In this document: in pieces, positions 6,056-46,920 of the stretch
Numbering within the stretch: the first letter of the stretch is position 1
Layout: each line of letters opens with the position of its first letter
From: Flavobacterium sp.
GTDB lineage: Bacteria; Bacteroidota; Bacteroidia; Flavobacteriales; Flavobacteriaceae
Assembly: GCF_049240005.1 (NCBI RefSeq)
Contig: NZ_JBMLTK010000028.1
Span: 8,773-72,772, forward strand
DNA length: 64,000 nt
Direction of reading: 5' to 3'
Notes under the pieces: generated by a model
Seen by the model: the letters and a program-made list of their open reading frames with translations, nothing else
Told to the model about the DNA's origin: nothing
Database searches by the model: none
Translations under genes and position numbers: made by a program

Positions 6056-6276
6056 TAACGTGGGTTCGACCTAAAAATTTTTATTAGATCGCTTGTAATG
6101 AGTACTTTAATTATAAGAAAATAATCTTCAGGCAGGATTTTTTAAAGCTAACCATTTAAACAGTTGCTTACGGCGTTGTATTTTTTTGAGATACCTCGGT
6201 ATCCCAAAGAAAATACGCCTTGTAATCAACTATTTAAATGATTTCTAATTTCGATTTTTATATCGAACTCACGTTA
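6056..6276 (+). mobile_element. MITE-like element, copy A (~221 bp, 14-bp terminal inverted repeats)
   Basis: Left end TAACGTGGGTTCGA and right end TCGAACTCACGTTA (13/14 complementary). The right ~135 bp (6141-6276) is highly similar to 27018-27153. Confidence 0.6.
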
Positions 6277-7466: not shown

Positions 7467-7476
7467 TATGATAGAA

Positions 7477-8388: not shown

Positions 8389-8389
8389 T

Positions 8390-9436
8390 TTATTTTGGTG
8401 TTTTTATGCCAAGTCCAGCAAGCATTTCTTTTGCTTCAGCATCATTAGTAGTAGCCGCTTTTTGAAGCCAAGTAACCGCCAATGCTTTATCTTTTATAAC
8501 TCCATCACCTTGAAGATACATCTTACCTAACATTACCATCGAACTAGTATCCTTTTTATTTGCCGCCTTTAAAAACCATTCAAAAGCTAACTTATTATCT
8601 TGCTTTACTCCTATTCCATTGAGGTATAAGTTCCCTAATTCGTGCATTCCATACTTATTTCCCATTTTGGCTGACTTTTCAAACCAATAAAAAGCTTTTG
8701 AGACATCAAGAGAGGTATGTAAACCCACTTGGTAATTTCTTCCGACTTCAACCATATCTTGAGAACTATTTAAAAGAGCTGCTTTAAGCTTAAAGGCAAA
8801 CGCTTTTTCATCACTTTTGGGAACACCCTTACCTAAAGTAAACATAGCGCTTAAATTATGTAAAGCTTCAATATTATCTTGGTCAGCAGCCATCGAAAAA
8901 TAATAAAATGCCAACCTAAAATCAACCTCTTTGCCAAAACCATTGAAGTACATTTCTCCTATTTTATTCATGGCATCACTACTTTTGGATGAAGCTTGAC
9001 TGAAAAAGTCAAAAGCCTTTGGGTAGTTTTCTTCCATATAGTAAAGTAGTCCAATTCTGTATATCGCTTCTTCGGAGCCGTTATCTTTTGCTTTATTTAA
9101 ATAAGTAAGTGCTTTGGGGATGTCTTTTTTAAAATTTGAATCCCATGAATAAAATTTACCCAAAGCCAACAGAAATGAATCGTCTTGCTCTGCTATAGGC
9201 TCAATCCATTTTTGCAATTGCACTTCGTCAAACTCAAAGGTTAAATTATCTTGTAATACAATGTATGATAGTGCTGCTAAAGCTGTTTTATCTCCTTTTT
9301 CGGCTTCCGGCCATAGTTGATTGTAAGCGGCTTCGTATTGTTCTTCTAGAAAGAATTTTTTAATTTCATTTATGTTAACTTGAGAGTAGGAGTTTATTGA
9401 GAGGAGGGTTAATATAATGATTATTGTTTTTTTCAT
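8390..9436 (-). CDS. secreted Sel1-repeat (SLR/TPR-like) protein
   Basis: Signal peptide MKKTIIIILTLLSINSYSQ. Repeated units of the form A..WF.KAA..G...A...LG.MY..G.GV..D. Confidence 0.85.
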   Translation of the reverse strand: MKKTIIIILTLLSINSYSQVNINEIKKFFLEEQYEAAYNQLWPEAEKGDKTALAALSYIVLQDNLTFEFDEVQLQKWIEPIAEQDDSFLLALGKFYSWDSNFKKDIPKALTYLNKAKDNGSEEAIYRIGLLYYMEENYPKAFDFFSQASSKSSDAMNKIGEMYFNGFGKEVDFRLAFYYFSMAADQDNIEALHNLSAMFTLGKGVPKSDEKAFAFKLKAALLNSSQDMVEVGRNYQVGLHTSLDVSKAFYWFEKSAKMGNKYGMHELGNLYLNGIGVKQDNKLAFEWFLKAANKKDTSSMVMLGKMYLQGDGVIKDKALAVTWLQKAATTNDAEAKEMLAGLGIKTPK

Positions 9437-9448
9437 AACTAGTTAAAA

Positions 9449-11278: not shown

Positions 11279-11302
11279 GTCATGAATTTAAATTATTATA
11301 AA

Positions 11303-12973
11303 CTATTTTAATTTAACTGTACCTGATTGCTCTTGAAAACCATAAACTTCTTTTGTTTCTTCATTATAGTAATTGTGTTCATTTATTTTGTACGATCCAA
11401 CCATTCCTTTATTTGTAATTTCAACAATCAATTTAAATGGAACTAGAGTTGGGTTTTTAAATCCACTTCCTTTTGTACCCAAATTTATAACGCCATTAAA
11501 TTCAATTTGTTTGTTAGATGATTTAGGTTTTACCTTATAGTTATAGCTATTCAAATCCCAAGTTCCAAATAAATTTTTATTATCCGTATTTCCGGTAATT
11601 CTATATGACCCATCAGTATTTTTAGTTAATTTCATAAAACATTTGGTTGTTTTATTTACAGTAGCGTTATAGATTACTCCTTCAAAATTCCTCGGTAAAT
11701 TTGAGTTTGTTAATCTGTCGAAATTATCACTTAAATTTGAATCATTGTTTAAATTTTTACTGACTTTACGAGATTCTATGGAGTCTAGTTTATTTAAACT
11801 ATCTTTTCTCTGATTGATCACATTTTTACTTTTTTCTTCAAAAAAGTCTCTATTATAAACATCTTTTGACGGCTGCTTCTCTTGTGTTGGTCCTAAATTA
11901 TTTTTACTTTCTATATTATTCCATATGATGAGAGATAACAGAATTACACTTACTAGTAGTAAAACATATTTTAAGAATTTGAAGTCATTTTTTTTTGGGT
12001 TTGTGAATGATTTGTTTTGAACCACATCTAAAATAGTCGATTGATTTTTTTGATGAGTTTCACTTTTATTAATTTCATAACTCCTATCAGGATTTTCAAT
12101 AATCTTTAATAATGTAGTTGTTGATTTTATTCTTTCATTTGGGTCTTTAATGAGGCATAATTTAGCAATATTTCTCCATATTGGTGGGAGTTCATTTAGT
12201 TTATCTGAAATATTTAAATTTACTATTTGGTTAAAAATTTCTACATCATTACTATGACTTCCTGTATGCGATGTTGTATTACTAAATAATTGTTTTCCTG
12301 TAAAAATCTCGTATATAATTACTCCATATGCCCAAAGATCAGAATTGAATCTAATTTCATTATTTTTAAGTTGTTCAGGTGAGCTATATCCCAATGTTCC
12401 ACCACTAAAACTATTGTTTATTAAACTGTTTTTGTTATTCATTGCTTTTTTAGAAAGCCCAAAATCAGTTATTAATGGTATAATGATTCTATCTTTTGCT
12501 TTACCATAAACATGAATAAGAATGTTTGAAGGCTTTAAGTCCCTATGAATAATGTTGTTAGCATGTAAAAAATCTATACCTTTAAGTAGCTGGATAGCAA
12601 TGCTTTCTTTTTCTTGATTGTTCAGTTTTTCACTTTTTATTATGTTATCTAAATTACCATCCTTATAAAACTGTAAGATTGCATAATCAAAAATACCTTG
12701 TTGTGTTTCAAAAGTAAACACATATTCATAGTTGGCTATGTTAGGATGACTCCCTAGATTCTCTAGGGCTTTAAACTCATCTTTTAATGAAAACTCTCTA
12801 CCATCAATTATTTTTACTTCAGAAACCTTTATGGCAACTTCTCGATGTAAAACAGTGTCAAGGGCTTTGTAGACTTTTCCAAAAGCACCATTACCGATTA
12901 AGTCGGTTTTGATGTTGTAATGAAATCGTTTAAAAAAATCGTCGATTGTTTTGATTTGATTGTATTTTGACAT
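11303..12973 (-). CDS. membrane Ser/Thr protein kinase (paralog) with a distinct beta-rich C-terminal domain
   Basis: GNGAFGKVYKA..VAIKV, HRDLKPSNIL, DFGLSK, SSPEQ. TM helix YVLLLVSVILLSLIIW, followed by an uncharacterised C-terminal domain of ~210 aa. Confidence 0.9.
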   Translation of the reverse strand: MSKYNQIKTIDDFFKRFHYNIKTDLIGNGAFGKVYKALDTVLHREVAIKVSEVKIIDGREFSLKDEFKALENLGSHPNIANYEYVFTFETQQGIFDYAILQFYKDGNLDNIIKSEKLNNQEKESIAIQLLKGIDFLHANNIIHRDLKPSNILIHVYGKAKDRIIIPLITDFGLSKKAMNNKNSLINNSFSGGTLGYSSPEQLKNNEIRFNSDLWAYGVIIYEIFTGKQLFSNTTSHTGSHSNDVEIFNQIVNLNISDKLNELPPIWRNIAKLCLIKDPNERIKSTTTLLKIIENPDRSYEINKSETHQKNQSTILDVVQNKSFTNPKKNDFKFLKYVLLLVSVILLSLIIWNNIESKNNLGPTQEKQPSKDVYNRDFFEEKSKNVINQRKDSLNKLDSIESRKVSKNLNNDSNLSDNFDRLTNSNLPRNFEGVIYNATVNKTTKCFMKLTKNTDGSYRITGNTDNKNLFGTWDLNSYNYKVKPKSSNKQIEFNGVINLGTKGSGFKNPTLVPFKLIVEITNKGMVGSYKINEHNYYNEETKEVYGFQEQSGTVKLK

Positions 12974-12984
12974 TTTCTCTCGGA

Positions 12985-13545
12985 TTATTGATTTTCCTGT
13001 AAAAAACTTATTACCTGAGCCACTTTTTCAGCTTGATCATTTTCACTTATGGCAAACTCAAGAGTCTCATTTCTTTCAAGCTCTTCATAACTAATCTCTC
13101 CATCACCATAATACGTGATTCTTCCTTTTGTTTGATGCAATTGTTTGCCGTTTTCAGTTGTGAAACTTGGATAGGCATACCAACTAGATAGGAATACAAA
13201 TTTTACACTTTGAGTGGCAGCATTATATTCTGTTTCTGAATCAATAATTTCATAAGTAGGATTTTCGCCTGAAAAAAAGGAAACTGCCTTCATGTATTTT
13301 TTTGTGAATTCTGCGATAGAAGCCTCAGCCATAATTCTTTTTCTTTCAATAGCTTCTCTTTTAAGTTCTTCTTGAACTGCTGCAATCGAATCTTGTTTGG
13401 CCTGATAAATACTGTCTTGAACTCTTTGGTATTCCTCTTGAGTAATTACAGAATCAACCTCGGATTGAATTGTTTGGTCTTGTTCTTTTTTTATACAGGA
13501 CGTAAAAATGGATGCCATGATTAGTATTAAGACTATATTTTTCAT
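12985..13545 (-). CDS. lipoprotein of unknown function
   Basis: Signal peptide plus lipobox (IFTSC), a Q/E-rich coiled-coil-like stretch, then a globular C-terminus. There is an 11-nt gap to the kinase gene. Confidence 0.7.
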   Translation of the reverse strand: MKNIVLILIMASIFTSCIKKEQDQTIQSEVDSVITQEEYQRVQDSIYQAKQDSIAAVQEELKREAIERKRIMAEASIAEFTKKYMKAVSFFSGENPTYEIIDSETEYNAATQSVKFVFLSSWYAYPSFTTENGKQLHQTKGRITYYGDGEISYEELERNETLEFAISENDQAEKVAQVISFLQENQ

Positions 13546-13566
13546 AATTTTTAGTTTTAAAATGGT

Positions 13567-14283
13567 TTACAGAATTGTTACTTGAATTATCGTTCTACCT
13601 AATCGGATTTTATCATTGTTTTGAAGTACAATTATTTCATTTCTAGACTTGTCTTCAAAGGTCTTTAGCTTTTCTTCATTTATAAAAGTATGGTTTAAAC
13701 TACCATTATCCTGAATTGAAAAAGTATTGTTCTTGTCGTTACGCTTAATAAGAGCATGGGCTCTTGACATCATAGTGTCTTCCGTTTCAATGGCAATATC
13801 GGGTTGGATTGTTGTATTGTTTTTTCTGCCAATTGTCAAGAAAGGTTGTGAAATTTCAAAATGCTGCTCTTTGTTATTTTCAGAAGCTAAAACTAACAAG
13901 GAGAGTTTTTTTTCTGTTTGATTAACACTTCCTACTTTGGTTTTATTGGTTACTGCATTTCCATTTGAAGTATCATTTGCAACAGGTACAGTTAAAAACA
14001 TCATCTTTTTGCAATGAAAACACTTGTTTTTGATGCTTTTACCTTCTGAACCTTCGGTAGTTACGATGGTATTTTCTTTATTGCAAAAAGAACAATTTTC
14101 TTTGAATATTACTTTCTTCATAGTACTTGTTTTTGAATCTTGAATAGTTTTTATCAATCCTATTCGATGGTTACAATTGGAGCAAGTGAATTGCAATGAA
14201 TTCCATTCTTCTTGATTATTAGGTAAATTAGATATCCCGATAGATATGTCACAATTTGGACACTTAAAAAGTTGCTTTTCCAT
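13567..14283 (-). CDS. double zinc-ribbon + FHA domain protein
   Basis: Four CxxC pairs (CPNC, CSNC, CSFC, CFHC). C-terminal FHA signature LTIGRKNN...MSRAHALIKR...IQDNGSLNHTFINEEKL. Confidence 0.8.
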   Translation of the reverse strand: MEKQLFKCPNCDISIGISNLPNNQEEWNSLQFTCSNCNHRIGLIKTIQDSKTSTMKKVIFKENCSFCNKENTIVTTEGSEGKSIKNKCFHCKKMMFLTVPVANDTSNGNAVTNKTKVGSVNQTEKKLSLLVLASENNKEQHFEISQPFLTIGRKNNTTIQPDIAIETEDTMMSRAHALIKRNDKNNTFSIQDNGSLNHTFINEEKLKTFEDKSRNEIIVLQNNDKIRLGRTIIQVTIL

Positions 14284-14288
14284 AATGA

Positions 14289-15269
14289 CTAGCTGTAAAA
14301 TCCATCAATCGAGTCATCATTACTGATGTTATTATCTGCTTCATCATTCAAATTTCCTTGAAGGTCGTTTTCATCAAGTTCATCAGCTTCGGTATCTTCT
14401 TGATCATCTTCATTTTGATCGTCCTTTCCCTCATAATCCTCATCATCAGCACCTTGACCAATACTTATAGGTCCTCCAATAGGAAGCACTTCACCTGTCA
14501 TTGTATAAGCAGCTCCAAATTGAATTTCATTGCCAACAACATTCACATCCATCAATATAATATCTGCATCTCCATCAAAATTGGTGTCCAAAACGAGGTC
14601 ATGAATTTCATTACCATTCGCATCTACAAGAAAGATATCTGGCTTTCCATCATTATTGCTATCGAGCTCTTTGATGATTTTTTGTTCAAAATCATGGTCT
14701 AATTCATCAATTATTTCATACTTTACTGGTTCTGGTTCATTTCCACCTGGTTCTGGTTCGTCAATTGGACTATTCATAGGAATTGTAACACTTGAATCAA
14801 CTTCTTGTATTTGCGTAGTTTCCTCATCAATCGATTGCCAATATTCTTGATGCTGTTCAACAGTCATACTATTCCATTCTTCTTTGGTGTAGGTATTGTA
14901 TAATTTCCCTTGGTATTCAAAAAAACCACCGGGTCCAACTTCTTCTCGAGCAGTTGCGTAAGCGTTTTCAAAATCCATAGCATCAGTCACCGATTTTGCA
15001 AAAGGTGCCTCTGTACAAATAACCACAGCATCATCAGAAACTTCATTATCATTGGAATCAGGAGTTGGATCTGTTGGCTTCACAATTTTATTATTGGATT
15101 TAGAGATAAATCCCATTAAAGCAAATGCCCCAGCTCCTATTGCAATCCCCGCTAAACCAATCTCTGTTTTAAGAAGTGTATCTTTTTGAATTTTTGATAA
15201 TCCCCTTAAAACAATATTCCCTTTACTTTTGGGTTGTTCGTTGTTTCTATTATCAATTGTCGTTTCCAT
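14289..15269 (-). CDS. single-pass membrane protein with a highly acidic C-terminal region and DxDxDG-like calcium-binding loops
   Basis: TM helix IGLAGIAIGAGAFALMGFI. Loops DSNNDGKPD and DTNFDGDAD. Long D/E-rich tail. Confidence 0.7.
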   Translation of the reverse strand: METTIDNRNNEQPKSKGNIVLRGLSKIQKDTLLKTEIGLAGIAIGAGAFALMGFISKSNNKIVKPTDPTPDSNDNEVSDDAVVICTEAPFAKSVTDAMDFENAYATAREEVGPGGFFEYQGKLYNTYTKEEWNSMTVEQHQEYWQSIDEETTQIQEVDSSVTIPMNSPIDEPEPGGNEPEPVKYEIIDELDHDFEQKIIKELDSNNDGKPDIFLVDANGNEIHDLVLDTNFDGDADIILMDVNVVGNEIQFGAAYTMTGEVLPIGGPISIGQGADDEDYEGKDDQNEDDQEDTEADELDENDLQGNLNDEADNNISNDDSIDGFYS

Positions 15270-15367
15270 GATTTTGCTATTTATTTTGTTTTACAGTGTA
15301 AAGGTGCAATGGATATGCTTTGAGTTTTAATAAATTGTACGAAATCAATTGTTGGCTGTACAAAACC

Positions 15368-16039
15368 TTATTTATTATAAATTGCACCGCATTTTTTTGG
15401 ACAGACTTTATTCTTTTTCAGTTTTAACCATGAGTAATTTTCATCATGAATTGGAAAAATATAATCGCATTTAGGATTTGGACAGTTATACTTAGCTATA
15501 AAGTCATGTTTTTTGTTTTCAAATTTTTTTGAAATTAAGTACACATAAATAACTATGGTTGCACTTAAACAAGAGATAATTAGAGAAACTGCATTTAGAA
15601 TTCCTTCTTCACTGAAGTAAGCTTTTGAAACACCTATTAATCCTATAAATGGTATACAAATAGATTGCAAACTTCTTAATTCTCTAATTTTTTTACTTTT
15701 CTTTTTATACGTTTCATAAATAATTTTTCTTTGATCAAACTCTTCTGAATAATCAGTTTTGTTTTCATTTAAAATAGTAGTATAACGCTCGACTATTTCA
15801 CCTAAATCAACAATATATTTAGTTTCTACCCCTAAAGTTATTTTATCCTCCACGGTGACTATTTTACTAACAATAGGGTTGCCATTGACATAAGTCCCGT
15901 TTGTTGAATTCAAGTCTTGCAATAAAATTTCTCCGTTGTCAATAATTATTTTAGCATGAACTCTGCTCACTGATGAAAATTCTCCTGGTACTAATAGTGT
16001 GTTTTCACCCGTTACTTCTCTTCCTATCAAAAATTCCAT
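15368..16039 (-). CDS. FHA domain - two TM - zinc-ribbon protein
   Basis: N-terminal FHA LIGRE...SRVHAKIIIDNGEILLQDLNSTNGTYVNGNPI, two hydrophobic helices, and C-terminal CPNPKC...CPKKC. Confidence 0.8.
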   Translation of the reverse strand: MEFLIGREVTGENTLLVPGEFSSVSRVHAKIIIDNGEILLQDLNSTNGTYVNGNPIVSKIVTVEDKITLGVETKYIVDLGEIVERYTTILNENKTDYSEEFDQRKIIYETYKKKSKKIRELRSLQSICIPFIGLIGVSKAYFSEEGILNAVSLIISCLSATIVIYVYLISKKFENKKHDFIAKYNCPNPKCDYIFPIHDENYSWLKLKKNKVCPKKCGAIYNK

Positions 16040-16041
16040 GT

Positions 16042-16731
16042 TTATTCTGGTGTTTCTTCGTAATTAATTTTTGCTGTTTCCCACATTAATCGTTTTATGA
16101 GATAAGGGAATTGTTTATTGTATTTTGGAAATTCCAATATTGCACCATTGCTAAACTGAATTTGTTTTCCTTTAATGGTTTTGATCATATTCAAGTTCAA
16201 GATGATACTTTTTCCAAAGCGTTCAATAAACTCCATCGATATAAAGTAAGATTCTAACTCTTTTAACTTTTTAGAGACAACCAGTTTTGAATGATCATCA
16301 AAGTAAATTTCTGAATAATTGCCACTCCCTTTTATATAAGTAATCGTATTGGGATTAATATAATCTCTAGATTGAAGGGATGGAATTTCTATTTTTTGGA
16401 CAAATAAATGAGCATTATTGATTAAGAATTTATCGAATCCAGACTTTAAGTCGTTTTTCCAGTCATGTGCATCAATATCCACAAAGTAAGCTGCATTAAT
16501 TTTCCAAGCTAGCTTGGCAACCTTTGGAGATTTTGATAAAATGAAAAGCGGCGCTTGAAATGCAAGCAGTTGCTCTCGTATCTGTTTTCGCTCTTCTTTA
16601 CTTTCATCTTGAGCATGAAAAAAAACTACGCTTTCAGGTAATATAACCTTAGTAGCATATGCTAAACCATTTAATTTATTTTTGATTTCCAAGACCTTGT
16701 GTGCCTCTATGTTTCTGAAGATAAGCTGCAT
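16042..16731 (-). CDS. LytTR-family DNA-binding regulator with a degenerate receiver-like N-domain
   Basis: The C-terminus ITYIKGSGNYSEIYFDDHSKLVVSKKLKELE fits LytTR. The N-domain is REC-sized but lacks the acidic DD pocket (it starts MQLIFRNIEA). Confidence 0.8.
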   Translation of the reverse strand: MQLIFRNIEAHKVLEIKNKLNGLAYATKVILPESVVFFHAQDESKEERKQIREQLLAFQAPLFILSKSPKVAKLAWKINAAYFVDIDAHDWKNDLKSGFDKFLINNAHLFVQKIEIPSLQSRDYINPNTITYIKGSGNYSEIYFDDHSKLVVSKKLKELESYFISMEFIERFGKSIILNLNMIKTIKGKQIQFSNGAILEFPKYNKQFPYLIKRLMWETAKINYEETPE

Positions 16732-16756: not shown

Positions 16757-17457
16757 AAAATTTATCTTTTTCTTTCTTTATTTAAGTTGAAAAACAATGA
16801 ATTAGCTTATCAGTTCTTAATATTTGAAAGTAATTTTTTTATTTCAAAACAACTAGGGTCTAAGATTCTTTATAACTTAAAATAGTTGCTATTTTAACTT
16901 TAGTAATTGTGAAAATACTAGAGTTGTTTTGTTCCTATTCTCTTATTAAATTTAGGATAATTTAAAAATTATTAATTGAAATAAGGTCTATTGTTCTATC
17001 TTCTGCGTGTTTACCTTTATTGGATATTTTGGTAAGTCTTTGGCAAGAGTCGAAACTTTCAACTGTTTTGTGACCTTCTTGAAAAGATTTCTCAAAAGAA
17101 AATTTATGTTTTAAAAGTCGCAAAAAGGTGAGTAAAAGTTGAATGCAAAGGGACATTGTTTTTGTTAGCTGACAACTAAAAAAGACTGCCAACAGTTTGA
17201 GCGCCTTATTGTATTAATTGGCTCTGTTGATGTTTTTTCAAAATTTCTTCAAAGTATAAAAGAAGCTCTATTATAATGTAAGAATAGGGTATACATTCTG
17301 AATTTGCATCTATAAATCCGTGCTTCTAGTGAAGTACACCTTGTTGTAATGCTAAATTTAATGTGCATGTAAATTGAAAAATAGTACTTGACAGATTTTA
17401 AATTTCTGTTTTCAAATTCCTCACTTTCCAAATCAGTTCTAGCTTGCTTTCTCTGAA

Positions 17458-17916
17458 CTAAACATTCAAATCCAGTTGTCGGTTTTCGGCGGCGGCTTTT
17501 TCGTCTTTTACATGTCCGATTGCAAAGCCTATCGACATACCAAACGGAAATCCTAAACCGAGCAGGCCCATATTGTTGGCCACAGTACCAATAGCAACGC
17601 CAATCGGTATGCCAAAGGCGCTCATGCCAAAAAGTGTAAACAATACGCGGTAATGATTTTTTGGCACCCATTTGAGCTCTTTTTTTACCTGTTGCAAAAT
17701 TTGCGCCTGACTTTTAGCGATGAGTCTTAGTAACTGATTTTCGGGCAATACCGCAGCATTAATGCGTTCGATGTGCTCGTTTACAAAGGCCTCAGTGCTT
17801 TCGGGCATTGCGCGTTTACTGAGCTCGCTGAGTAATTTCTCGAAAACGGCAACCGCTTTTATTGCTTTTACACTTAGGTTTTCGCGGTTTCGGACTTGAA
17901 GAGGTTTCAATGACAT
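17458..17916 (-). CDS. hypothetical membrane protein (core-like GC)
   Basis: 152 aa. Helical N-terminal half and glycine-rich TM region GIPIGVAIGTVANNMGLLGLGFPFGMSIGFAIG. Its GC is visibly higher than both flanks. Confidence 0.6.
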   Translation of the reverse strand: MSLKPLQVRNRENLSVKAIKAVAVFEKLLSELSKRAMPESTEAFVNEHIERINAAVLPENQLLRLIAKSQAQILQQVKKELKWVPKNHYRVLFTLFGMSAFGIPIGVAIGTVANNMGLLGLGFPFGMSIGFAIGHVKDEKAAAENRQLDLNV

Positions 17917-18161: not shown

Positions 18162-21100
18162 TTAAGTATTAGAATGATTTTCAACAGCGATAATAACTTC
18201 ATTTTTTTGATTATTTATTTTGGTTAATATTGTATCTAAATAGTCATCGCCAAAATGGTTTCTAATCCAATTAATTTCGCTAGTAAATGCTTTGACTTCT
18301 TTTTCACTTGAATGGAAGTCGATTTTTTTTCTGCCTAATCTACCAAGAGTTCTTACTGATAAAGTATGATACTTTTTTATGTCTTTTATTAGCATTCTAA
18401 CAAATTTTGCTAAGCTTTCTTCACTTCCTGACAGTATTTTTAAGTACACGTTTAAATTTTCAAGAGCTTTTGCTTCTAATGCAATATCACTTCTACCTAT
18501 TTTATAATTTGGCTTGAATGATTTAATTTTTTCATAATTAATCCAAAAGTCTTTTGAAAGCGGCAACTTAATTTCGTTAAATTCACACTGAGTGTTTAAT
18601 AACAAATCGTCAAAAGTTACTTCTTTGATGTTAGTATAACCTTCCTCTTCTTTTTCAATAATTTGCGCGAAAAGACTTAATCCTTTTTTTCTTAAGACAT
18701 TTAGTTGATAGTTGTCCGTTTTTTTAGCTGATTTTACTCTTGTTGGTAAATTGCTTATTTTCTTTATTAATTCTGGATATTGTGTTTCTATTTCATTATA
18801 GATATTTCTAATATGTGTTGATGTATTAATCCCGCCACTTTCATCTGGATTTTGATTTAGTTTAAAGTAGAGACCTGACGCTGTTGGTTCCTCTTCTTCA
18901 TCAAATATTTTAGCATCTTCACCTAACGAACTATGAATTAAATACATTTTTTGAGCTGCTATTTCTCTTGATTTTACTATATCAGCTCCTATTTCCGAGG
19001 GAAAAAAGTTATAAATGTGTAGTTCGTCAAATACTTTCGCTCCAATACGATTAATACGACCTACTCTTTGAATAACTCTTGTTGGATTCCAAGGAATATC
19101 GTAATTGATAATTACGCCTGCACGATTTAAATTGAACCCTTCAGATAGTTTATCACTCGTTAATAATATGTCGAAATGATTGGTTTGTCCGTCTTTTCTT
19201 TGCGCATTGAAATCTGAATTCAGACTTTTAGCCAATTCTTTTGAAACCTTACCATCACAAACTAATAATCGCATTCCGAATTTCTCACGGAAATATGGCT
19301 CTAAATGTTTAATAGTATCAACATATTCTGAAAACAATATGACTTTTCTGTTTTTGTCTTTTTCTAAAATAGATTGTATTTCATTTGCTATACGTTCTCT
19401 TTTTGGGTCGTTTTCTACAATTTTTAGTTTTTTTAGTTGGCTTTGAATTTCTTGAAAAACTAAAATATCACTTTCAATATGTTCCAAAAATTCAGTCCTT
19501 CTTTGGAAATCATTAATATCATAAACAGTATTGTTTTTTGGAACTTTTTTATTTAATAAATCTTTAGAATATTCGCTTAAAATTCTATCAATATCGTCTT
19601 CATCATATGACTTAATTTTATCAATTAAACCTCTGTCTAATATGTATTTGCCATTAGACTTTTCAATGAAATCACGTACTAAAATATGCACTTGTAAAAA
19701 ACGATCTATTGATTGACTAAATGCCCCAAATGAACTTTCGAAACGCTTTACTAATAAGCGTCTCATGAAGTCAAATAAGTTTTGCTGTTGTTGGAATTGT
19801 CTGTTGCCTTGTTCGTCTAGTTGATCCTCGTCTACAATTTTTTCATAACTGAAAGGTTGATAGATTGCTCCTTTGAATCTGCCGTTTTCTTCAAAGTATT
19901 CATTTAATATTCTGTCATAAAATGTATTTTGTTCATGTGATAAATGATAAAATAATTCAACAGGGTCTTTAACGGTAGATAAATCACCAACCTCTGCTTT
20001 ATAAACGTAATCTTCTTTTAAATCTAATCGATTTCTTCTAATTACTACAGAGGAAATTATACTCTTGATTTGATTTGCCAATAATTTAGTTTCATGTCTT
20101 ACCACATTAACGTCTATGGGTAATTCCTTAGCTAGCATGGTGCGATATAATGTTTCTGCTTTTTGACGCTTAGCCGGTTTGTTAGAATTCCAGTTTTTGA
20201 TTATGTCTGAAAGACGTTTGTATTTATAATTGAATGCTCTGAATAAACCTTCTAAGTTATCATCAATTGTGATACCTGATTTACCAGGTACAATAAATAG
20301 TTTTAATAATGAAAATATATCCGCGGGTGAATTATTGAATGGTGTAGCTGTCAATAAAATTACGGTTCTGTCTCTACAGATGGTAAGTAAAGATTCATAA
20401 TCTGCGGAATCTTGATTCCTAAAATAATGTGCTTCGTCGACAATAACAACTTTAATTCCTTTTGTTTGAATTGTATCTGCTAAATCTTCTAATTTTCCTC
20501 TACTTTCTACTTCCCAATCATACAATTTAAATTCATTAATATAACCCCACCAACCTGTATTGTATGTTTTATCACCCATTAATCCTGGAGGACAAATAAC
20601 CATTCCTCTTTTGCCTAAGTTTTTAGCTATTAGAGAGGCAATTACTGATTTCCCCAAACCTACCACATCGGCAATAATAACTCCGTTGTATTCCTCAATA
20701 ATAGATAATGCTTGGTTTACTGCATCGGTTTGATAGCTGTATTTTTTATATCCAATTTCTTCCAGAAGATTTTCTACTTCGGGTTTTATTTGTTTTTGTT
20801 GTTGTAGGTCTAAATAGGTTTTTAGAATCAAGACATAAGCTTCAAAAGGAGTTACTGAAGCTGCTTGCGATTTGTGCTGAATGAATTGTATCAAAAACTC
20901 TTTTCTGTTTTCGATTTCTGAAATTGGAATAGCTCGTTCCCAAAGTTCATCAAAATAGTTTTCAGCTTCGGTAAAACCATAATCTTTTATTTCTACATTG
21001 AATTCTTCCTGACCCGATAATCCTGCACGCGTTAAGTTACTACTACCTGTAATAAACTGCCCTATCATTGCTTGTATTTCTGCCTGTTCTTGGTTTAAAC

Positions 21101-21521
21101 GGAATAGGTATAACTTAGCGTGGTTTGAATTTTCGGTTTTACGAATGATTAATCGTTTTTCGTTTAACATTTGTAGAAAGAACTCTACTTGATTGTAGAA
21201 TGCTTCTGTGTCCATTTCTTCATTGTTAATGGCATTTCCCATAGAAGTCATGAATTGATTGAATAGGTCGTCTTGTGACTGTTCCTCTTCTTGGCTACCG
21301 TGTTCTACAATTTTATTTAAGATTTGATCTACTTGAAGTCCAACCAATAATTTTAGTGTTAGGTTTTCGTTCTTTTTTAAGTTTTCAAAAAGTTCTTGCC
21401 AACCTGAAAAGTAAAAGAACCCTACTAAAAATTTAAGCTCATCACTAATGCCGATTAATGTATTTAATCTTCCTTTTAATGATTTATTGGTTTTATTATT
21501 GGTTATGAAATTGTTTGCCAT
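18162..21521 (-). CDS. PLD-family (HKD) nuclease domain fused to an SNF2-family ATPase/helicase
   Basis: NHAKLYLF...GSSNLTRAGL (HKD motif), GLGKS (motif I), VIVDEAHYFRN (motif II), LLTATPFNN (motif III), WNPTRVIQRVGRINRIG (motif VI), then an unassigned C-terminus of ~250 aa. Confidence 0.9.
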   Translation of the reverse strand: MANNFITNNKTNKSLKGRLNTLIGISDELKFLVGFFYFSGWQELFENLKKNENLTLKLLVGLQVDQILNKIVEHGSQEEEQSQDDLFNQFMTSMGNAINNEEMDTEAFYNQVEFFLQMLNEKRLIIRKTENSNHAKLYLFRLNQEQAEIQAMIGQFITGSSNLTRAGLSGQEEFNVEIKDYGFTEAENYFDELWERAIPISEIENRKEFLIQFIQHKSQAASVTPFEAYVLILKTYLDLQQQKQIKPEVENLLEEIGYKKYSYQTDAVNQALSIIEEYNGVIIADVVGLGKSVIASLIAKNLGKRGMVICPPGLMGDKTYNTGWWGYINEFKLYDWEVESRGKLEDLADTIQTKGIKVVIVDEAHYFRNQDSADYESLLTICRDRTVILLTATPFNNSPADIFSLLKLFIVPGKSGITIDDNLEGLFRAFNYKYKRLSDIIKNWNSNKPAKRQKAETLYRTMLAKELPIDVNVVRHETKLLANQIKSIISSVVIRRNRLDLKEDYVYKAEVGDLSTVKDPVELFYHLSHEQNTFYDRILNEYFEENGRFKGAIYQPFSYEKIVDEDQLDEQGNRQFQQQQNLFDFMRRLLVKRFESSFGAFSQSIDRFLQVHILVRDFIEKSNGKYILDRGLIDKIKSYDEDDIDRILSEYSKDLLNKKVPKNNTVYDINDFQRRTEFLEHIESDILVFQEIQSQLKKLKIVENDPKRERIANEIQSILEKDKNRKVILFSEYVDTIKHLEPYFREKFGMRLLVCDGKVSKELAKSLNSDFNAQRKDGQTNHFDILLTSDKLSEGFNLNRAGVIINYDIPWNPTRVIQRVGRINRIGAKVFDELHIYNFFPSEIGADIVKSREIAAQKMYLIHSSLGEDAKIFDEEEEPTASGLYFKLNQNPDESGGINTSTHIRNIYNEIETQYPELIKKISNLPTRVKSAKKTDNYQLNVLRKKGLSLFAQIIEKEEEGYTNIKEVTFDDLLLNTQCEFNEIKLPLSKDFWINYEKIKSFKPNYKIGRSDIALEAKALENLNVYLKILSGSEESLAKFVRMLIKDIKKYHTLSVRTLGRLGRKKIDFHSSEKEVKAFTSEINWIRNHFGDDYLDTILTKINNQKNEVIIAVENHSNT

Positions 21522-21593
21522 TCTTTTAGTTACGTTTATTCACTTATCTATTTTTTAAAATATTGATATGTTTTGTTTTCTTGTGTTAGTCAA

Positions 21594-22046
21594 TTATTGT
21601 TCTTGATTGTTTAAATGAATTGTTTTAGCCTCAATTATTTTCATTTTTAATTCGATGCTAAAATCATCTTCATAAATGAATGAAGTAATTATTTCATGTA
21701 ATAAATCTCTATCTATTATGTTATCAGCAACATCAACAGCAATATATTCTATTTCTCTCATGAATCTACCAACTATGAAATCTAATTGATTGATTTCGAA
21801 AAAGTAAGCTGTTAAAACAACTGATGCTCTTTTGTTTCCATCAGAAAACGCATGATTTTTATTTAAGGCATAAAACAAATAAGCTGCTTTATCTTCTATA
21901 GTTGGATAATACCCATCATGTTGAACAAAATCTAAAACCGCTTCCAAATGTCCTTTGTCTTTTATGCCAAATAAACCACCTGATTTTTCTATTATATAGT
22001 CGTGTTCTTTGATAGCATATTCTATGTCAAAATAATTGAATTTCAT
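21594..22046 (-). CDS. Fic/Doc (death-on-curing) family protein
   Basis: HAFSDGNKRAS matches the Fic core HxFx[DE]GNGR/KR. 150 aa. A 3-nt gap separates it from the upstream RhuM gene. Confidence 0.85.
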   Translation of the reverse strand: MKFNYFDIEYAIKEHDYIIEKSGGLFGIKDKGHLEAVLDFVQHDGYYPTIEDKAAYLFYALNKNHAFSDGNKRASVVLTAYFFEINQLDFIVGRFMREIEYIAVDVADNIIDRDLLHEIITSFIYEDDFSIELKMKIIEAKTIHLNNQEQ

Positions 22047-22049
22047 ACC

Positions 22050-23051
22050 CTATCTGTCTTTTAATCTTTTGAATACATCTATGTTTTCATCAATTCTTTC
22101 TTCAAGAGTTTTGCTTTTTTCACCTAAGAACCTATCAAAGTCTGTCTTTGAAACACTATCTATATATTGTTCAAGATTTTCATGCAAAACTTGCCTGAAA
22201 CCATAATCTCTTGTAGCCATTTTTGTTCTTGCATCGTTGATTAATGGTGTAAATAATGGATGTTCTGCAAAGTTTTCAAGAAGATTATCCATTTCTGCCT
22301 TAGCCAATTTTCTATTATACTTTAACGACAATGATTTCATTTCGTGTGCTAAACCATTTTCAAAAGAAGCTATTAATTTTAAAACTTCAGCATACATGGT
22401 GTCTCTTACGTTTTCATTTGCTTCTAATTTTAAAACTCTTTTATACTCGTCTGCTTTTTCTTTAAAAACACATTGATAAATTTTATCTGTGTAGTATGAG
22501 TATTTGAAAGGACCTAAGTCTAAATATTCTTTTAAGGCATTTGTAAATTCTTTACGATAATGAGGTTCTTTTAATATTGTATTAAAAAAGTCTTCATCGC
22601 GTTGGTTGATGTATTTTGTAGAACCTCCTGTTTTTTGGTTTAAACTATCAATTACAATATCAAGCATTTTGCTTCTTAAAGCTTTTGCCATATCGCTCTC
22701 TACTAAAAGCATTCCGATGTTTAAAAACGATCTAAAATTAAACACGCCTAACTGTGGAGTTCTGCTAGACAAGTTTAGAATATGACCAAATTCTTCTTTG
22801 AATTCTTTTAATGATTTACCCTTTAATACATTATAACCGTTATGCTTTAGCTCTTTTTCATTATTTTCTAAGTAACGTTCTATTGTTACAACATCTATTT
22901 GATAAAATTCAGCAATTTGCTGTTTTGTGAATACATATTGTTCTTTAAAATACATACCCGGTATACCTACATAGTCTTGTAATTGCATTATGACTATATA
23001 GTTATTTAGAATGTTTTGACGGTCAATATTTGAAACGGTTAAATCTTTCAT
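22050..23051 (-). CDS. RhuM-family protein
   Basis: N-terminus FTKQQIAEFYQIDVVTIERYLENNEKEL and the overall length fit RhuM proteins seen in R-M loci. I chose the start MKDLTV (ATG 23051) over the tracked 23135. Confidence 0.75.
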   Translation of the reverse strand: MKDLTVSNIDRQNILNNYIVIMQLQDYVGIPGMYFKEQYVFTKQQIAEFYQIDVVTIERYLENNEKELKHNGYNVLKGKSLKEFKEEFGHILNLSSRTPQLGVFNFRSFLNIGMLLVESDMAKALRSKMLDIVIDSLNQKTGGSTKYINQRDEDFFNTILKEPHYRKEFTNALKEYLDLGPFKYSYYTDKIYQCVFKEKADEYKRVLKLEANENVRDTMYAEVLKLIASFENGLAHEMKSLSLKYNRKLAKAEMDNLLENFAEHPLFTPLINDARTKMATRDYGFRQVLHENLEQYIDSVSKTDFDRFLGEKSKTLEERIDENIDVFKRLKDR

Positions 23052-23290
23052 TTTCTGACTTTTTTGTTTTATTTTACAAGCACCTGCTACAAAACTGAGT
23101 TCTACTCTTTCACTACTTTTGTTACAACACAACAATTTTATTACTAAAAATTATTTAAAAAAACAATTATTGTTGATAACTTTTTTATGTTCTCCTCATT
23201 CATGAGGGAAACATATTGTGTTATTGTTGAAAAACCCTTATTTTACTGGTCTTTTGGTTTAGATTATTTTTAGTGATTTTATTCACAATT

Positions 23291-26200
23291 TTAATAAACA
23301 TAGCTGTTATACTCCTGCTCGCTTAACCCAAACTCTGGATCTACCACCAAAACTTCAGCATAACTAAGCTCATAAAGTTTGTAAACCATAAGGTCGATTT
23401 GGTTTTCTAATTCTGTAGTGTCGAGGTTTTGTTTTTTATTTTCTATTATTTTATTAACTTTATCTACTATTAACTTTTGGATATTTGATTCAACAATTTT
23501 TATCGGTAATTTTCTTAAAAATGTCAACTTGACTTGAGCAAAAACTTTACCACTCTCTGTTATTAAAAGCTTATAAAGAAAGTTACCAAATTTTGAATTT
23601 AAAATTGATAGGATATACTTCAATTCAAAATTTTTATCGTTCTTTATGATGGAATGAACTGAGTCAATACAATAAAATTCATCTTCTATAAATGTTGCAA
23701 TTAAATCAGCAGATGTTTGTCTCAGAAAAATTTTCGGTTCTCTAAAAAACTTATCATCTCTTTTACACCATAACCATTCTCCATATTCAATAAAATTTTC
23801 TTTCCATTTATCTTCGTATCTATGAAAATCTTTTCCTCTCATTACTGGTTTTGAATACTTTGAAATGATTGAATCATTAAAATAATTTTTCTTTTCACCT
23901 TGAACCTTAGCATAAACTGTAATTCCCTGAGTGCTATGTGTTATTGTCCCAAGATTTACAGTATTCGCAGAGTATTTTTTTAAAATTTTGTAATTATCTA
24001 TTGTTTCGAAATCAAACGAAGTTGAATCATAATCATCTTGCAAAAGTTCTGATTTTTTTAACAAATTTAAGCTGTTATTTTGTATTAAATATTTTGTGAA
24101 TTTTGTTTTAAATGATTTATTACTTTTTGATTTAATTAAAAAAGTTAGTGAACTATCCACAATAGCTGTTTCGAAAACATTCTCAATTCTTTCAGTTACT
24201 TCAATTATATTTGTTTTACTTCTAATATAATTCCTTAATTCTTGAAATTGAGTATAAACAGTAAAAGTATGTGGTGTTATGTATGAAAGGATGCCTTTGT
24301 GATTTAAATAATCTATTCCGATTTTAAAAAAGAAAATATATAAATCATAATGTTTTGATAAAACGTCTTTAAATAACTTTTGAAAAAACTCTTTATCTTT
24401 TTTATTTGAAACTTCTACATAAGGCGGATTCCCAATTACCACATCAAATTTTTCTACGCCAAACATCCAATCAGGGTCAAACCAGGCAGAGCTTTCGTTA
24501 CTAAAGGGTTTCCATGCAGCTAATTGTTGTGCGCGCTTGTTTTGTCCGCCGGATTTGAGTTCGTTTTTATAGATTTCTTGTTGCAGTTTTTCGAAGTCGG
24601 ATTTTAGTGTTCGCTTTTCAGTTGGCGAAGCTTGTAAATAGGCGTTTCTTATTTTTTGCAATTGCGTTTGCAATTGAGCCGTTTCACCAAAATCAAACTC
24701 AACAGCTTTTTCTTTGTTTTCTTGTTCTAATCCAATCAATGTGTTTGCCGTAACAAACTTAAATTCCAAATTAGGCAACGGAATAATACCTCTGTTCTCG
24801 GCAGTATCATTAATATTTTCGTCTATGATTAAAGAAAGAAAACTCCTTAGTTTAGAGATTTCTGCAGCAACGGGTTGAATATCTACACCGTAAATAGAGT
24901 GTTGGATTACGCCCAATTTTCTGGCATAATCACTTGTAGCCGACGATAACTTTTCTTCCATTATTTTACGCATAATGGCATTGTCAATTTTCTCTAATTG
25001 CTTCGCTTTCCACCAAACCGCACCTTTATCTAATTTTTTAAGTAATGCAATTATCTTGTGTAAAACTCCCATAGGGAAAGCTCCCGAGCCACAAGCTGGA
25101 TCCAGGATTTTTACATCGCTCAAAGCTTCGAGAATTGCGATGGTTTGTTTGCTGTCGAAAGGATTTTCGGTATCGTCTTTTAGTAGAATCTCTAGTTTTT
25201 CTTCTTCGTCGATATTGGTTTTGGTTTTGATGTATTGCAATAGTGATTGTTCCACCATATAATCGACAATCTCACGAGGTGTATAAAAGCTTCCTGTAGA
25301 TTTACGGGCACTTTTCTCGGTATCTGGGTCTATTTCTGCCAAAAGATTTTCGAAGATAGTTCCCAACATTTCGGGGTCTATACTTACCTCAAAATCGTTT
25401 GAACTATTTTCATCAATTGTAAAATTGTATTGTTCTAAAACTTCAAAAAAATCTTTAAACCATTGATTAGGAATATGTAGTGCAAAATTGGCTTGATGAA
25501 TTCCTTCACTGTCTTTTGGGAAAAAATCATCCGCTTGCGCTTCAAAAAGTCCGCCATTTAAGAACGGAACTAGCTCATGGTTGTTAGGTAACTGATAAGG
25601 TTTTCTTTCATCGCCCTTTTTTTTATTCAAGATCAAAAAGAACAATTTTTCAAGAATTGAATGATAGTAATCATGCCTTTCGTTATCTACACTGGCTACC
25701 ATTTTTGACGAAAGCCATTCTTCGGGGATCAACGGAAGACCATTGTCTGACTTCTTATTTTTCAGAAACCAGCAAAAAATGGTTCTGCCGATAAGTCGTA
25801 CACCAAACTCTTGGTATTCTTTTCTATAATCATTTATTGGCTTGGTAGGCAATTGTAAGCAAGGGTTAAAAGACACTTCTTTCTTATTGATGCTTACTTT
25901 ACCACCTATAAGGCTATAAAAAGCGGTTGCAATTTCTTCGTAGAATTTTTTATTTAGTTTTTCAACACTAAATGCTTCTTGTATTTCTTCTAGCGAGCTA
26001 AAATTACATCCGTTAATTCTGTTTTTGAATGTTTTGTTGGTTCTTGCTGGGTCAACAAAGTAAGTGTAACGTTTCCAGCTAGAAAATTTTTGATTTTTGT
26101 TGCCGTAATTTCTGCGAATGAACGAAAAGCGGAAACAGCCATTTTCGTCATAAAATATAAAAATGGCACCATCTTTAAAATCTGCTGAAAGTACTTTTTT

Positions 26201-26455
26201 GGCAATGTCGAACTGGATTTTCTTTGAGGAGCGTTCAGATAGTATTCCTTGATATTTACAAGTAAAAACAAGTAAATCAGACGCATCGCTAAAGGTAGCT
26301 TCACCTATTTTTATTAATTCTGAAAATCGTTGAAAATCGTTTTCAGTCAATATGTAGTTTAGGTCTTCGGAAATCTTTCGGAACGATGAAATTTTATCAA
26401 AAAAGAAATCGCCTACCAACTGAACAGAGAAATTTTGAATGAAAGGTATCGTCAC
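23291..26455 (-). CDS. large gamma-class N6-adenine DNA methyltransferase with a C-terminal specificity region (Eco57I/Type IIG-like architecture)
   Basis: ILDPACGSGAFPMG (motif I) precedes VVIGNPPYVE (motif IV). A TRD-like C-terminus of ~350 aa follows. I could not assign the ~300-aa N-terminal region to a nuclease. Confidence 0.9.
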   Translation of the reverse strand: MTIPFIQNFSVQLVGDFFFDKISSFRKISEDLNYILTENDFQRFSELIKIGEATFSDASDLLVFTCKYQGILSERSSKKIQFDIAKKVLSADFKDGAIFIFYDENGCFRFSFIRRNYGNKNQKFSSWKRYTYFVDPARTNKTFKNRINGCNFSSLEEIQEAFSVEKLNKKFYEEIATAFYSLIGGKVSINKKEVSFNPCLQLPTKPINDYRKEYQEFGVRLIGRTIFCWFLKNKKSDNGLPLIPEEWLSSKMVASVDNERHDYYHSILEKLFFLILNKKKGDERKPYQLPNNHELVPFLNGGLFEAQADDFFPKDSEGIHQANFALHIPNQWFKDFFEVLEQYNFTIDENSSNDFEVSIDPEMLGTIFENLLAEIDPDTEKSARKSTGSFYTPREIVDYMVEQSLLQYIKTKTNIDEEEKLEILLKDDTENPFDSKQTIAILEALSDVKILDPACGSGAFPMGVLHKIIALLKKLDKGAVWWKAKQLEKIDNAIMRKIMEEKLSSATSDYARKLGVIQHSIYGVDIQPVAAEISKLRSFLSLIIDENINDTAENRGIIPLPNLEFKFVTANTLIGLEQENKEKAVEFDFGETAQLQTQLQKIRNAYLQASPTEKRTLKSDFEKLQQEIYKNELKSGGQNKRAQQLAAWKPFSNESSAWFDPDWMFGVEKFDVVIGNPPYVEVSNKKDKEFFQKLFKDVLSKHYDLYIFFFKIGIDYLNHKGILSYITPHTFTVYTQFQELRNYIRSKTNIIEVTERIENVFETAIVDSSLTFLIKSKSNKSFKTKFTKYLIQNNSLNLLKKSELLQDDYDSTSFDFETIDNYKILKKYSANTVNLGTITHSTQGITVYAKVQGEKKNYFNDSIISKYSKPVMRGKDFHRYEDKWKENFIEYGEWLWCKRDDKFFREPKIFLRQTSADLIATFIEDEFYCIDSVHSIIKNDKNFELKYILSILNSKFGNFLYKLLITESGKVFAQVKLTFLRKLPIKIVESNIQKLIVDKVNKIIENKKQNLDTTELENQIDLMVYKLYELSYAEVLVVDPEFGLSEQEYNSYVY

Positions 26456-26933: not shown

Positions 26934-27153
26934 TAACGTGAGTTTGATATAAAGATCTACGTTCGAACGCTTAAATTGAGTCGTTTAAATAGTTCACGGG
27001 AATTTTTGCTGAGCTATTTTGAAAGCTAATCATTTAAACAGTCGCTTACTGCCTTGTATTTTTTTGAGGTACCTCGGTATACCAGGAAAATACGCCTTGT
27101 AATCAACCGTTTAAATGATTTCTAACTTTAATTTTTACATCGAACTCACGTTA
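26934..27153 (+). mobile_element. MITE-like element, copy B (~220 bp)
   Basis: Left end TAACGTGAGTTTGA and right end TCGAACTCACGTTA (13/14 complementary). Same orientation as copy A. The right ~135 bp is near-identical to 6141-6276. Confidence 0.6.
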
Positions 27154-46792: not shown

Positions 46793-46817
46793 TTATCTTT
46801 GTTTTTTAGAAGCTTTT

Positions 46818-46890: not shown

Positions 46891-46920
46891 TAGGGCATTC
46901 GTTACCAAAATAGTACACAC

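Follow-up and report, generated by a model that had tools for sequence, protein, structure and literature searches.

Joint inheritance of an adenine methyltransferase and an HKD-SNF2 protein points to a probable two-component ATP-dependent restriction-modification system in Flavobacterium

Introduction

Why should a large adenine methyltransferase that lacks a recognizable nuclease be encoded next to a nuclease that is fused to a DNA motor? The question is raised by a stretch of DNA from Flavobacterium sp. (NCBI RefSeq assembly GCF_049240005.1, contig NZ_JBMLTK010000028.1, positions 8,773 to 72,772 of the forward strand), whose full 64,000 nucleotides are referred to here as the window. Two long open reading frames (ORFs) for proteins of 1054 and 1119 amino acids lie on its minus strand, at exactly the coordinates given in a preliminary description that had been made from the sequence alone. 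The smaller protein had been read there as a gamma-class N6-adenine methyltransferase with a C-terminus resembling a target-recognition domain, and the larger one as a phospholipase D (PLD) type nuclease domain with an HKD motif, fused to an SNF2 ATPase. Two explanations had been offered: either methylation and specificity reside on one polypeptide and nuclease and motor on the other, as parts of a split, translocating restriction system, or a self-contained Type IIG enzyme sits beside an independent, SauUSI-like modification-dependent enzyme.

It appears likely that the two large genes specify one two-component, ATP-dependent restriction-modification (R-M) system with a logic similar to that of Type I and Type III systems. 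The split arrangement is supported by the joint inheritance of the two genes and by a methyltransferase N-terminus in which no nuclease was detected, and we set out this evidence before turning to the genes that surround the pair, to the known systems that it resembles and to the other explanations that can be given for it.

Results

The two genes are inherited together far beyond this Flavobacterium. Scanning genomes with aligned HKD-SNF2 homologues yielded 270 confirmed matches, and the best 80 loci, with 54-95% identity, were examined. Forty-four of these 80 loci are informative, having at least 6 kb of sequence upstream of the HKD-SNF2 gene, and all 44 carry a methyltransferase homologue upstream and on the same strand (41 full-length, three remnants, none without). 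When the ORFs of the 80 loci were clustered, one order on one strand was seen: the methyltransferase gene, then zero to four variable genes, then the HKD-SNF2 gene. The gap between the methyltransferase and HKD-SNF2 genes runs from an overlap of 19 bp to a distance of 18 bp in ten loci, is 217 bp in one and amounts to 1.0-3.8 kb in the others. The linkage is also found when starting from the opposite gene: five of six homologues of the methyltransferase N-terminal domain from other phyla (38-50% identity over the query) adjoin an HKD-SNF2 gene or pseudogene. These five distant loci are from Dehalococcoides, Dehalogenimonas, Pontiella, Mucilaginibacter and a metagenome contig, and both gene orders occur among them, often with the helicase first. 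Plasmids of Thermus oshimai and Allomeiothermus silvanus encode in a row a methyltransferase (24% identical), a hypothetical protein and an HKD-SNF2 protein (38-40% identical). Judged by this conservation of gene neighbourhood, the methyltransferase and the HKD-SNF2 protein are inherited together across many bacteria and most likely represent one ATP-driven restriction system.

On the two plasmids (pMESIL02 of A. silvanus, L088, and pTHEOS02 of T. oshimai, L089) the protein labelled 'DNA methyltransferase' measures 745-790 amino acids and is followed by the hypothetical protein of 330-410 amino acids and then by HKD-SNF2, possibly a split version of the system in which specificity resides on a subunit of its own. 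Many of the distant copies have decayed, including those of Dehalococcoides mccartyi (L083), Dehalogenimonas (L086), Pontiella (L081) and a further locus (L087), with frameshifted HKD-SNF2 and methyltransferase genes, an insertion sequence inside the methyltransferase gene or truncated remnants. The system seems to be often lost.

The 1054-residue protein has an N-terminal domain, a helical spacer, a gamma-class N6-adenine methyltransferase and a TaqI_C target-recognition domain, in this order. Both predictions made for the enzyme hold: motif I (DPACGSGAF, residues 452-460) precedes motif IV (NPPY, 676-679), which is the gamma-class order, with the methyltransferase motifs intact, and the C-terminus is a recognizable target-recognition domain. 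The Pfam matches are Eco57I (5.6e-31), N6_Mtase, MmeI_Mtase (28.1 bits) and TaqI_C (4.5e-21). The target-recognition domain resembles the C-terminus of BseCI and is the most variable part of the methyltransferase, with a mean pairwise identity of 0.22 among homologues. A profile built from 58 homologues matches MmeI (PDB 5hr4; E=5e-7), residues 151-300 of the query aligning to residues 113-264 of MmeI, an alignment that spans the end of the N-terminal region and the helical spacer. Based on this match, the 1054-residue protein is a relative of MmeI-type enzymes, and its homologues bear public labels such as 'type IIL restriction-modification enzyme MmeI' and 'type II restriction endonuclease'. 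The best Type IIG match, the PADLOC profile REase_MTase_IIG, covers residues 213-784 only. It is therefore probable, as far as profile and domain comparisons allow, that the methyltransferase descends from MmeI/Eco57I-type (Type IIL/IIG) enzymes and that the position of the nuclease has been taken by a different, non-catalytic N-terminal domain.

The core of the PD-ExK nuclease of MmeI lies at the position that corresponds to the first ~150 residues of the present protein. No Pfam family matches residues 1-210 even at E <= 10, and across the 58 homologues no aspartate or glutamate is invariant before E165; the residues that are invariant are G51, R109, S111, R129, T142, F162 and F171. AlphaFold2 models of residues 1-215 (predicted local distance difference test, pLDDT, 91) and 1-440 (pLDDT 85) give the domain an alpha-beta3-alpha-beta3 topology. 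Foldseek searches against PDB with the 440-residue and 215-residue models returned nothing better than E=0.01 or a template modelling (TM) score of 0.28, and the search of BFVD with the 215-residue domain model nothing better than E=0.003. The weak top matches (DHH phosphoesterases, CorA and a few PD-(D/E)XK-like viral proteins) are non-significant and were not used as evidence. The earlier observation that the methyltransferase has no recognizable nuclease thus persists after family, conservation and structure searches. Among 1.84 billion representative proteins the domain was found in 540 clusters, where it is always N-terminal, in proteins of ~1000-1250 amino acids or fragments of these. 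By these comparisons, the N-terminal domain is a family-specific module of unrecognized fold, with a conservation rich in basic and hydroxyl residues and no nuclease detected.

What this domain might do is suggested by its co-variation with the HKD-SNF2 protein. Pairwise identities of four regions of the methyltransferase across 43 loci were compared with those of HKD-SNF2 by a Mantel test with 2000 permutations. The N-terminal domain (residues 1-210) gave a Mantel r of 0.72, a value that no permutation reached, followed by the spacer (211-360; r 0.29, reached in 1 of 2000), the catalytic core (361-810; r 0.26, reached in none) and the recognition domain (811-1054; r 0.12, reached in 128 of 2000). 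Once the N-terminal domain is controlled for, the partial correlation between the catalytic core and HKD-SNF2 is -0.24. Since the N-terminal domain is the part encoded farthest from the HKD-SNF2 gene in these loci, physical proximity does not explain the co-variation. The pattern is suggestive of an N-terminal domain that serves as the coupling module to HKD-SNF2, with the rest of the methyltransferase being exchanged by recombination.

The 1119-residue protein is, as had been proposed, an HKD/PLD domain fused to an SNF2 ATPase and harbours the only recognizable nuclease of the pair. PLDc_2 matches residues 125-194 with 30.4 bits, above the Pfam cut-off of 27, and is accompanied by SNF2-rel_dom and Helicase_C. 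The protein has one HKD motif per chain and displays the HxK...GSxN...E constellation of the HKD/PLD nuclease superfamily (Nuc/BfiI-like) in H134-x-K136, GSSN (159-162, preceding E173), as well as the Walker A (GLGKS, 288-292), DEAH (362-365), motif III (TATP) and motif VI (arginines of QRVGRINR, 818-825) elements of the SNF2-family ATPases. All of these HKD residues and SNF2 motifs, the Walker A lysine among them, are invariant in 85 of 85 homologues, down to 28% identity, so that the PLD domain retains its catalytic residues throughout. The SNF2 core resembles eukaryotic SNF2 remodellers and RapA, and the C-terminal region is less conserved within the family (mean identity 0.48) than the rest (0.63-0.65). 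Sequence and profile searches of PDB sequences with the HKD domain and the C-terminal 250 residues gave nothing significant, nor did Pfam detect a modified-base reader (DUF3427, SRA or similar) in the protein.

The HKD-SNF2 family is large. Its members are annotated as 'helicase-related protein', and some homologues match Pfam RE_NgoFVII. The NCBIfam model 'phospholipD_antiphage' reaches 104 bits (cut-off 1100), and the PADLOC model 'HKD+Snf2' spans residues 26-866. The corresponding entry, 'C3a139 HKD+Snf2', was rejected as a defined system, the model being a cluster from type III CRISPR neighbourhoods.

Two further genes lie between the large ones in the window and were absent from the preliminary description (Table 1). 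One encodes a RhuM-like protein, which probably starts at the ATG at 23051 rather than at the listed TTG, given that the PADLOC profile begins at residue 29 and that the homologue in L002 has 333 amino acids; the other encodes a toxin of the Doc/Fic family. The combination of RhuM-like protein and Doc occurs in the window and its two closest relatives only, and the RhuM-like protein in L001 and L002 alone among the 80 related loci. Elsewhere in these 80 loci the same slot is occupied by SLFN_AlbA_2/HATPase_c_4 proteins (11 loci), by DUF6088/AbiEi with AbiEii (12 loci), by a second AbiEi/AbiEii pair (six loci), by AAA_14-DUF4143 ATPases (eight loci) or by Bro-N proteins (five loci), and the slot genes are all on the strand of the flanking methyltransferase and HKD-SNF2 genes. 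RhuM-like and Doc genes inside R-M operons are known from earlier work, in which they were regarded as second-line toxins (PMC3710099). By their distribution, the RhuM-like and Doc genes are best regarded as swappable accessory toxin cargo and not as core components, as in Type I operons.

A second kind of variation affects the recognition domain. In several relatives (L012, L023, L025, L028, L029 and L063) a gene for a serine invertase (Resolvase+HTH) lies beside inverted copies of the methyltransferase 3' end, and in L025 the inverted repeat (5460-5554 and 7765-7859) comprises 95 nt with 94% complementarity. Such an arrangement is a phase-variable recognition-domain shufflon, of a kind catalogued before (Milman 2023, PMC9881135). 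There is no shufflon in the window itself.

Table 1. Coordinates in the window of the two large genes, their domains and the genes between them
Feature	Position	Strand	Basis
Putative methyltransferase-specificity subunit ('Mod-like'), 1054 amino acids	23291..26455	-	ORF; Pfam Eco57I, N6_Mtase, TaqI_C
N-terminal domain, residues 1-210, unrecognized fold	25826..26455	-	position corresponds to the nuclease site of MmeI-type enzymes
MmeI-like helical spacer, residues 222-304	25544..25792	-	Pfam MmeI_hel weak, 18.9-20.1 bits; profile-to-MmeI alignment E=5e-7
Methyltransferase catalytic core, ~residues 360-810	24026..25378	-	Pfam and motifs; motif I DPACGSGAF 25076-25102, NPPY 24419-24430
TaqI_C-type target-recognition domain, residues 869-985	23501..23851	-	Pfam 4.5e-21
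RhuM-like protein (PADLOC candidate PDC-M59A)	22050..23135	-	PADLOC 1.9e-116, profile starts at residue 29
Doc/Fic-family toxin (PDC-M59B), motif HAFSDGNKR at residues 65-73	21594..22046	-	Pfam Fic 1.9e-11; TIGR01550 DOC_P1; PADLOC 2.2e-31
HKD(PLD)-SNF2 fusion (putative 'Res-like' subunit), 1119 amino acids	18162..21521	-	Pfam PLDc_2, SNF2-rel_dom, Helicase_C
HKD nuclease domain, ~residues 1-200	20922..21521	-	single HKD motif: H134, K136, G159-S-S-N162, E173
SNF2-type ATPase core, ~residues 260-870	18912..20744	-	GLGKS, DEAH, TATP, QRVGRINR
C-terminal region, residues 871-1119, uncharacterized	18165..18911	-	no PDB sequence match

The two-gene module forms the right-hand end of an island of low guanine-plus-cytosine (GC) content (26-34%, against ~42% around it), and in the HKD-SNF2 genome scan the locus is 95% identical in Flavobacterium celericrescens. 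The whole island is bracketed by direct repeats of ~138 nt (6139-6276 and 27017-27153 of the window) that are ~90% identical and 20,878 bp apart; the window contains these two copies and no others, with GC-rich stretches just inside each. These repeats may mark att-like ends of the island or may be copies of an intergenic repeat, and no transfer RNA gene was found at the island borders. The remainder of the island (6633-16731, minus strand) is a signalling-type cluster that encodes a caspase-like Peptidase_C14 protein, a PP2C phosphatase, a Sel1-repeat protein, a LytTR protein, two Ser/Thr protein kinases (one with TPR repeats), two FHA-domain proteins and two proteins without a family match; the cluster possibly represents a conflict or regulatory system of its own that travels with the R-M module. 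Just downstream of the HKD-SNF2 gene lie two overlapping small ORFs (17458-17916 and 17249-17671), and the 152-residue product predicted there has no Pfam match and no homologue in the 80 related loci. A scan for sigma-70 promoters and terminators performed no better than on shuffled sequence, and Bacteroidota promoters differ from sigma-70 promoters in any case. The sole Rfam match in the window is a Flavo-1 RNA (RF01705, 78 bits) at 46812-46895, which, like the F. celericrescens locus, indicates a Flavobacterium-like genome.

Discussion

How a methyltransferase without a nuclease and a motor with one might cooperate can be pictured from their domains. The 1054-residue protein would be the modification and specificity subunit, with the TaqI_C-type domain reading the site and the gamma-class N6-adenine methyltransferase marking the host DNA, while the 1119-residue protein would be the restriction subunit, an SNF2-type translocase or slider on double-stranded DNA fused to a single-motif HKD nuclease. 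Upon binding an unmodified site on incoming DNA, the methyltransferase would hold, recruit or activate HKD-SNF2 through its N-terminal domain, ATP hydrolysis would move the complex along the DNA, and cleavage would follow when two HKD domains pair, either within a dimeric complex or where two complexes meet. SNF2 enzymes translocate on duplex DNA, and in Nuc and BfiI two chains with one HKD motif each build a single active site. Since a single HKD motif amounts to half an active site, cleavage should need two HKD domains together. One may speculate that, if the single recognition domain methylates one strand of an asymmetric site, a requirement for two complexes solves the problem of hemimethylation as it does in Type III systems. 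We infer the physical complex, the translocation, the dimer requirement and the role against phages.

The known systems to which the pair can be compared each share part of this design. Type IIL/IIG enzymes such as MmeI and Eco57I show the same order after the N-terminus, namely a helical spacer, a gamma-class N6-adenine methyltransferase of the Eco57I Pfam family and a C-terminal recognition domain. However, those enzymes cut with an N-terminal PD-(D/E)XK nuclease of their own and need neither a partner nor ATP, whereas here the nuclease position is held by a different domain without invariant acidic residues and an HKD-SNF2 gene is linked in all 44 informative loci. An identity as Type IIG or IIL was rejected for the lack of a detected nuclease domain in the methyltransferase and for the obligatory partner gene. 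Type III systems (Mod and Res, for example EcoP15I) likewise combine a methyltransferase carrying a recognition domain with a superfamily 2 (SF2) ATPase-nuclease partner, and a two-complex mode of cleavage is plausible for the present pair as well. Yet in Type III systems the recognition domain lies inside a beta-class Mod methyltransferase, and Res has a Rad25/DEAD-like SF2 core with a C-terminal PD-(D/E)XK nuclease, while the present system has a gamma-class methyltransferase, a C-terminal recognition domain, an SNF2 motor and an N-terminal HKD nuclease. Type III was rejected on these grounds, as methyltransferase class, ATPase family and nuclease family all differ.

Type I systems (HsdMSR) and Type ISP enzymes (LlaGI, LlaBIII) join ATP-driven translocation with methylation and recognition, and Type I loci also accept AbiE, RhuM and Doc genes, but the present system has no separate HsdS and no PD-(D/E)XK or Mrr nuclease, and it consists of two polypeptides rather than three (Type I) or one (Type ISP). 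Pfam detected no HsdS or HsdR families, and the Bacteroidota loci have two conserved genes only; both identities were rejected. NgoAVII/CglI, the ATP-dependent Type II systems, and SauUSI also use a PLD-family nuclease with an SF2 ATPase in restriction. In NgoAVII/CglI, however, the PLD nuclease reads DNA through a B3-like domain of its own and the helicase is a separate protein, whereas here recognition is expected from the methyltransferase, and SauUSI is a modification-dependent single protein, whereas the present HKD-SNF2 is linked to a methyltransferase and has no DUF3427 match.

The closest described architecture is that of the Type-2 BREX-related (BR) or Hma systems, in which an N6-methyltransferase is accompanied by a helicase whose Swi2/Snf2 core is joined to an N-terminal HKD endoDNase. 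These systems have been interpreted as R-M-like, with the DUF499 AAA+ ATPase at their centre and DUF3780 in 98% of them (Rakesh & Krishnan 2026, PMC12839542). DUF499 (HmaC) was found in none of the ten large neighbours scanned, the 80 loci hold no third conserved gene and the island in the window no such ORF; as for DUF3780, no conserved small gene accompanies the pair in the 80 loci, where the small neighbours were scanned against Pfam in part. Class 1 DISARM resembles the pair in having an SNF2 helicase (DrmD) and a large gamma-class adenine methyltransferase (DrmMI), with partial profile matches to both, but its PLD protein, DrmC, is separate and not fused to the SNF2 protein, and no conserved neighbours of the kind of DrmA (helicase) or DrmB (DUF1998) occur in the 80 loci or the window. 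The matches to the DrmD, BrxH, HmaA, DpdE, PglX and DrmMI profiles cover the shared catalytic cores only and remain well short of the curated cut-offs. DISARM, BREX, Hma, Dpd and Zorya were all rejected as assignments, since the matches to the helicase C-lobe are below cut-off and the partner genes are missing.

In the literature searched, recent discovery papers included, no named system has this two-gene architecture. HKD-SF2 fusions are recognized restriction components in several contexts (PMC2292703, PMC10853773), DUF499-centred BR/Hma systems have been described, and the pairing itself appears as a note in a table that lists a 'Type II R-M enzyme homologous to Cj0031' beside a coding sequence for PLD+SNF (Milman 2023, PMC9881135).

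Several observations weigh against the two genes forming one system. The evidence for it is comparative throughout, and the 80 loci are the best-scoring of 270, are mostly from Bacteroidota and are not phylogenetically independent. However, since linked pairs occur in different phyla and in either gene order, a joint function can be argued despite the weight of Bacteroidota in the sample. In some systems (Pbe), HKD-helicase proteins are reported to function with no DNA cleavage being detected (PMC10853773). The co-variation could also mean that the N-terminal domain and HKD-SNF2 are simply a stable backbone while the remainder of the methyltransferase recombines, so that it does not prove contact. 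With regard to a nuclease in the N-terminal domain, D95 is kept in 83% and D103 in 76% of the 58 homologues, a few of the non-significant BFVD matches are PD-(D/E)XK or Cas4-like proteins, and the negative Foldseek and Pfam results formally leave room for an unusual, cryptic nuclease. Moreover, the nuclease domain of MmeI is presumably unresolved in PDB 5hr4, in which case the library may lack the best comparator.

A cryptic nuclease of this sort would be needed if the genes were two independent neighbours, a self-contained Type IIG/IIL enzyme and a stand-alone, SauUSI-like modification-dependent (Type IV) HKD-SNF2 protein. The overall layout of the methyltransferase, which is that of MmeI/Eco57I enzymes, and the annotations of its homologues as Type IIL or Type II restriction enzymes speak for independence, as does the tendency of defence genes to cluster in islands, given that the module sits in a low-GC island. 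Nonetheless, we regard this explanation as very improbable. In all 44 informative loci the two genes share a strand, and the stop codon of one often overlaps the start codon of the other; the linkage also recurs across phyla in both orders. The N-terminal domain bears no nuclease signature, no modified-base reader was detected in HKD-SNF2, and constant pairing with a methyltransferase that makes N6-methyladenine (m6A) would render an m6A-dependent nuclease self-destructive. This second of the two explanations in the preliminary description is thus disfavoured, and the split system stands as the better account of the linkage.

Alternatively, the methyltransferase may mark the host DNA in the manner of BREX or DISARM, with an HKD-SNF2 protein that makes no site-directed cuts but instead blocks the replication of unmarked DNA, degrades DNA non-specifically or needs other host factors. 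Partial matches of the methyltransferase to the PglX and DrmMI models and of the helicase to DrmD, BrxH and HmaA are compatible with such a scheme, and HKD-SF2 fusions do occur in Pbe and BREX-related systems whose mechanisms are unsettled. But these matches are far from the curated cut-offs (DrmD 130 bits against 610, PglX 109 bits against 500), no conserved PglZ, BrxC/DUF499, DrmA/DrmB or, among the neighbours scanned, DUF3780 partner is seen in the 80 loci or the window, and a strict two-gene core with an invariant nuclease active site follows the minimal logic of classical R-M systems, which makes this possibility unlikely, though less so than the other two. That the pair is what decay has left of a larger Type-2 BREX-related (Hma-type) system, after loss of the genes for the DUF499 ATPase and DUF3780, would account for its kinship with systems that join an N6-methyltransferase to a helicase with an N-terminal HKD domain and an SNF2 core (PMC12839542), and for the match of the PADLOC HmaA model to residues 578-840 of HKD-SNF2. 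This match is, however, limited to the helicase C-lobe, no DUF499 gene is present among the large neighbours, and an intact two-gene arrangement with full-length ORFs and tight spacing in dozens of species is not the pattern of decay; we give such a derivation hardly any credence.

The preferred explanation, a two-component ATP-dependent R-M system, makes the pair a distinct, widespread and barely described variant of ATP-dependent R-M and not a fundamentally new kind. What is new is the non-nuclease N-terminal domain that co-varies with the motor-nuclease, along with the regular cargo slot. A more far-reaching scenario is doubtful, namely that the pair is a distinct and widespread type of ATP-dependent R-M system in which a IIL-derived methylase has swapped its nuclease for an undescribed fold that docks or activates HKD-SNF2, in which the meeting of two single-HKD subunits provides a new two-site, collision-type route to cleavage, and in which the operon serves as a landing pad for toxin modules.

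The system would add to the ATP-dependent restriction enzymes a two-gene architecture composed of a IIL-type methylase without nuclease and an HKD-SNF2 protein, one that is common in Bacteroidota, is also found in Chloroflexota, Deinococcota and other phyla, and is inconsistently labelled in public databases. It does not constitute a new class of biology, since HKD-helicase restriction components and methylase-helicase pairings are established themes, but it offers a testable case of a single-chain R-M enzyme that hands over cleavage to a separate motor-nuclease, and it singles out a domain of ~210 residues as the probable site of interaction. With their cargo slot and, in relatives, their recognition-domain shufflons, these loci are useful as markers of defence islands, and knowledge of the methylation motifs would allow m6A patterns across the genomes of these bacteria to be attributed to these genes.

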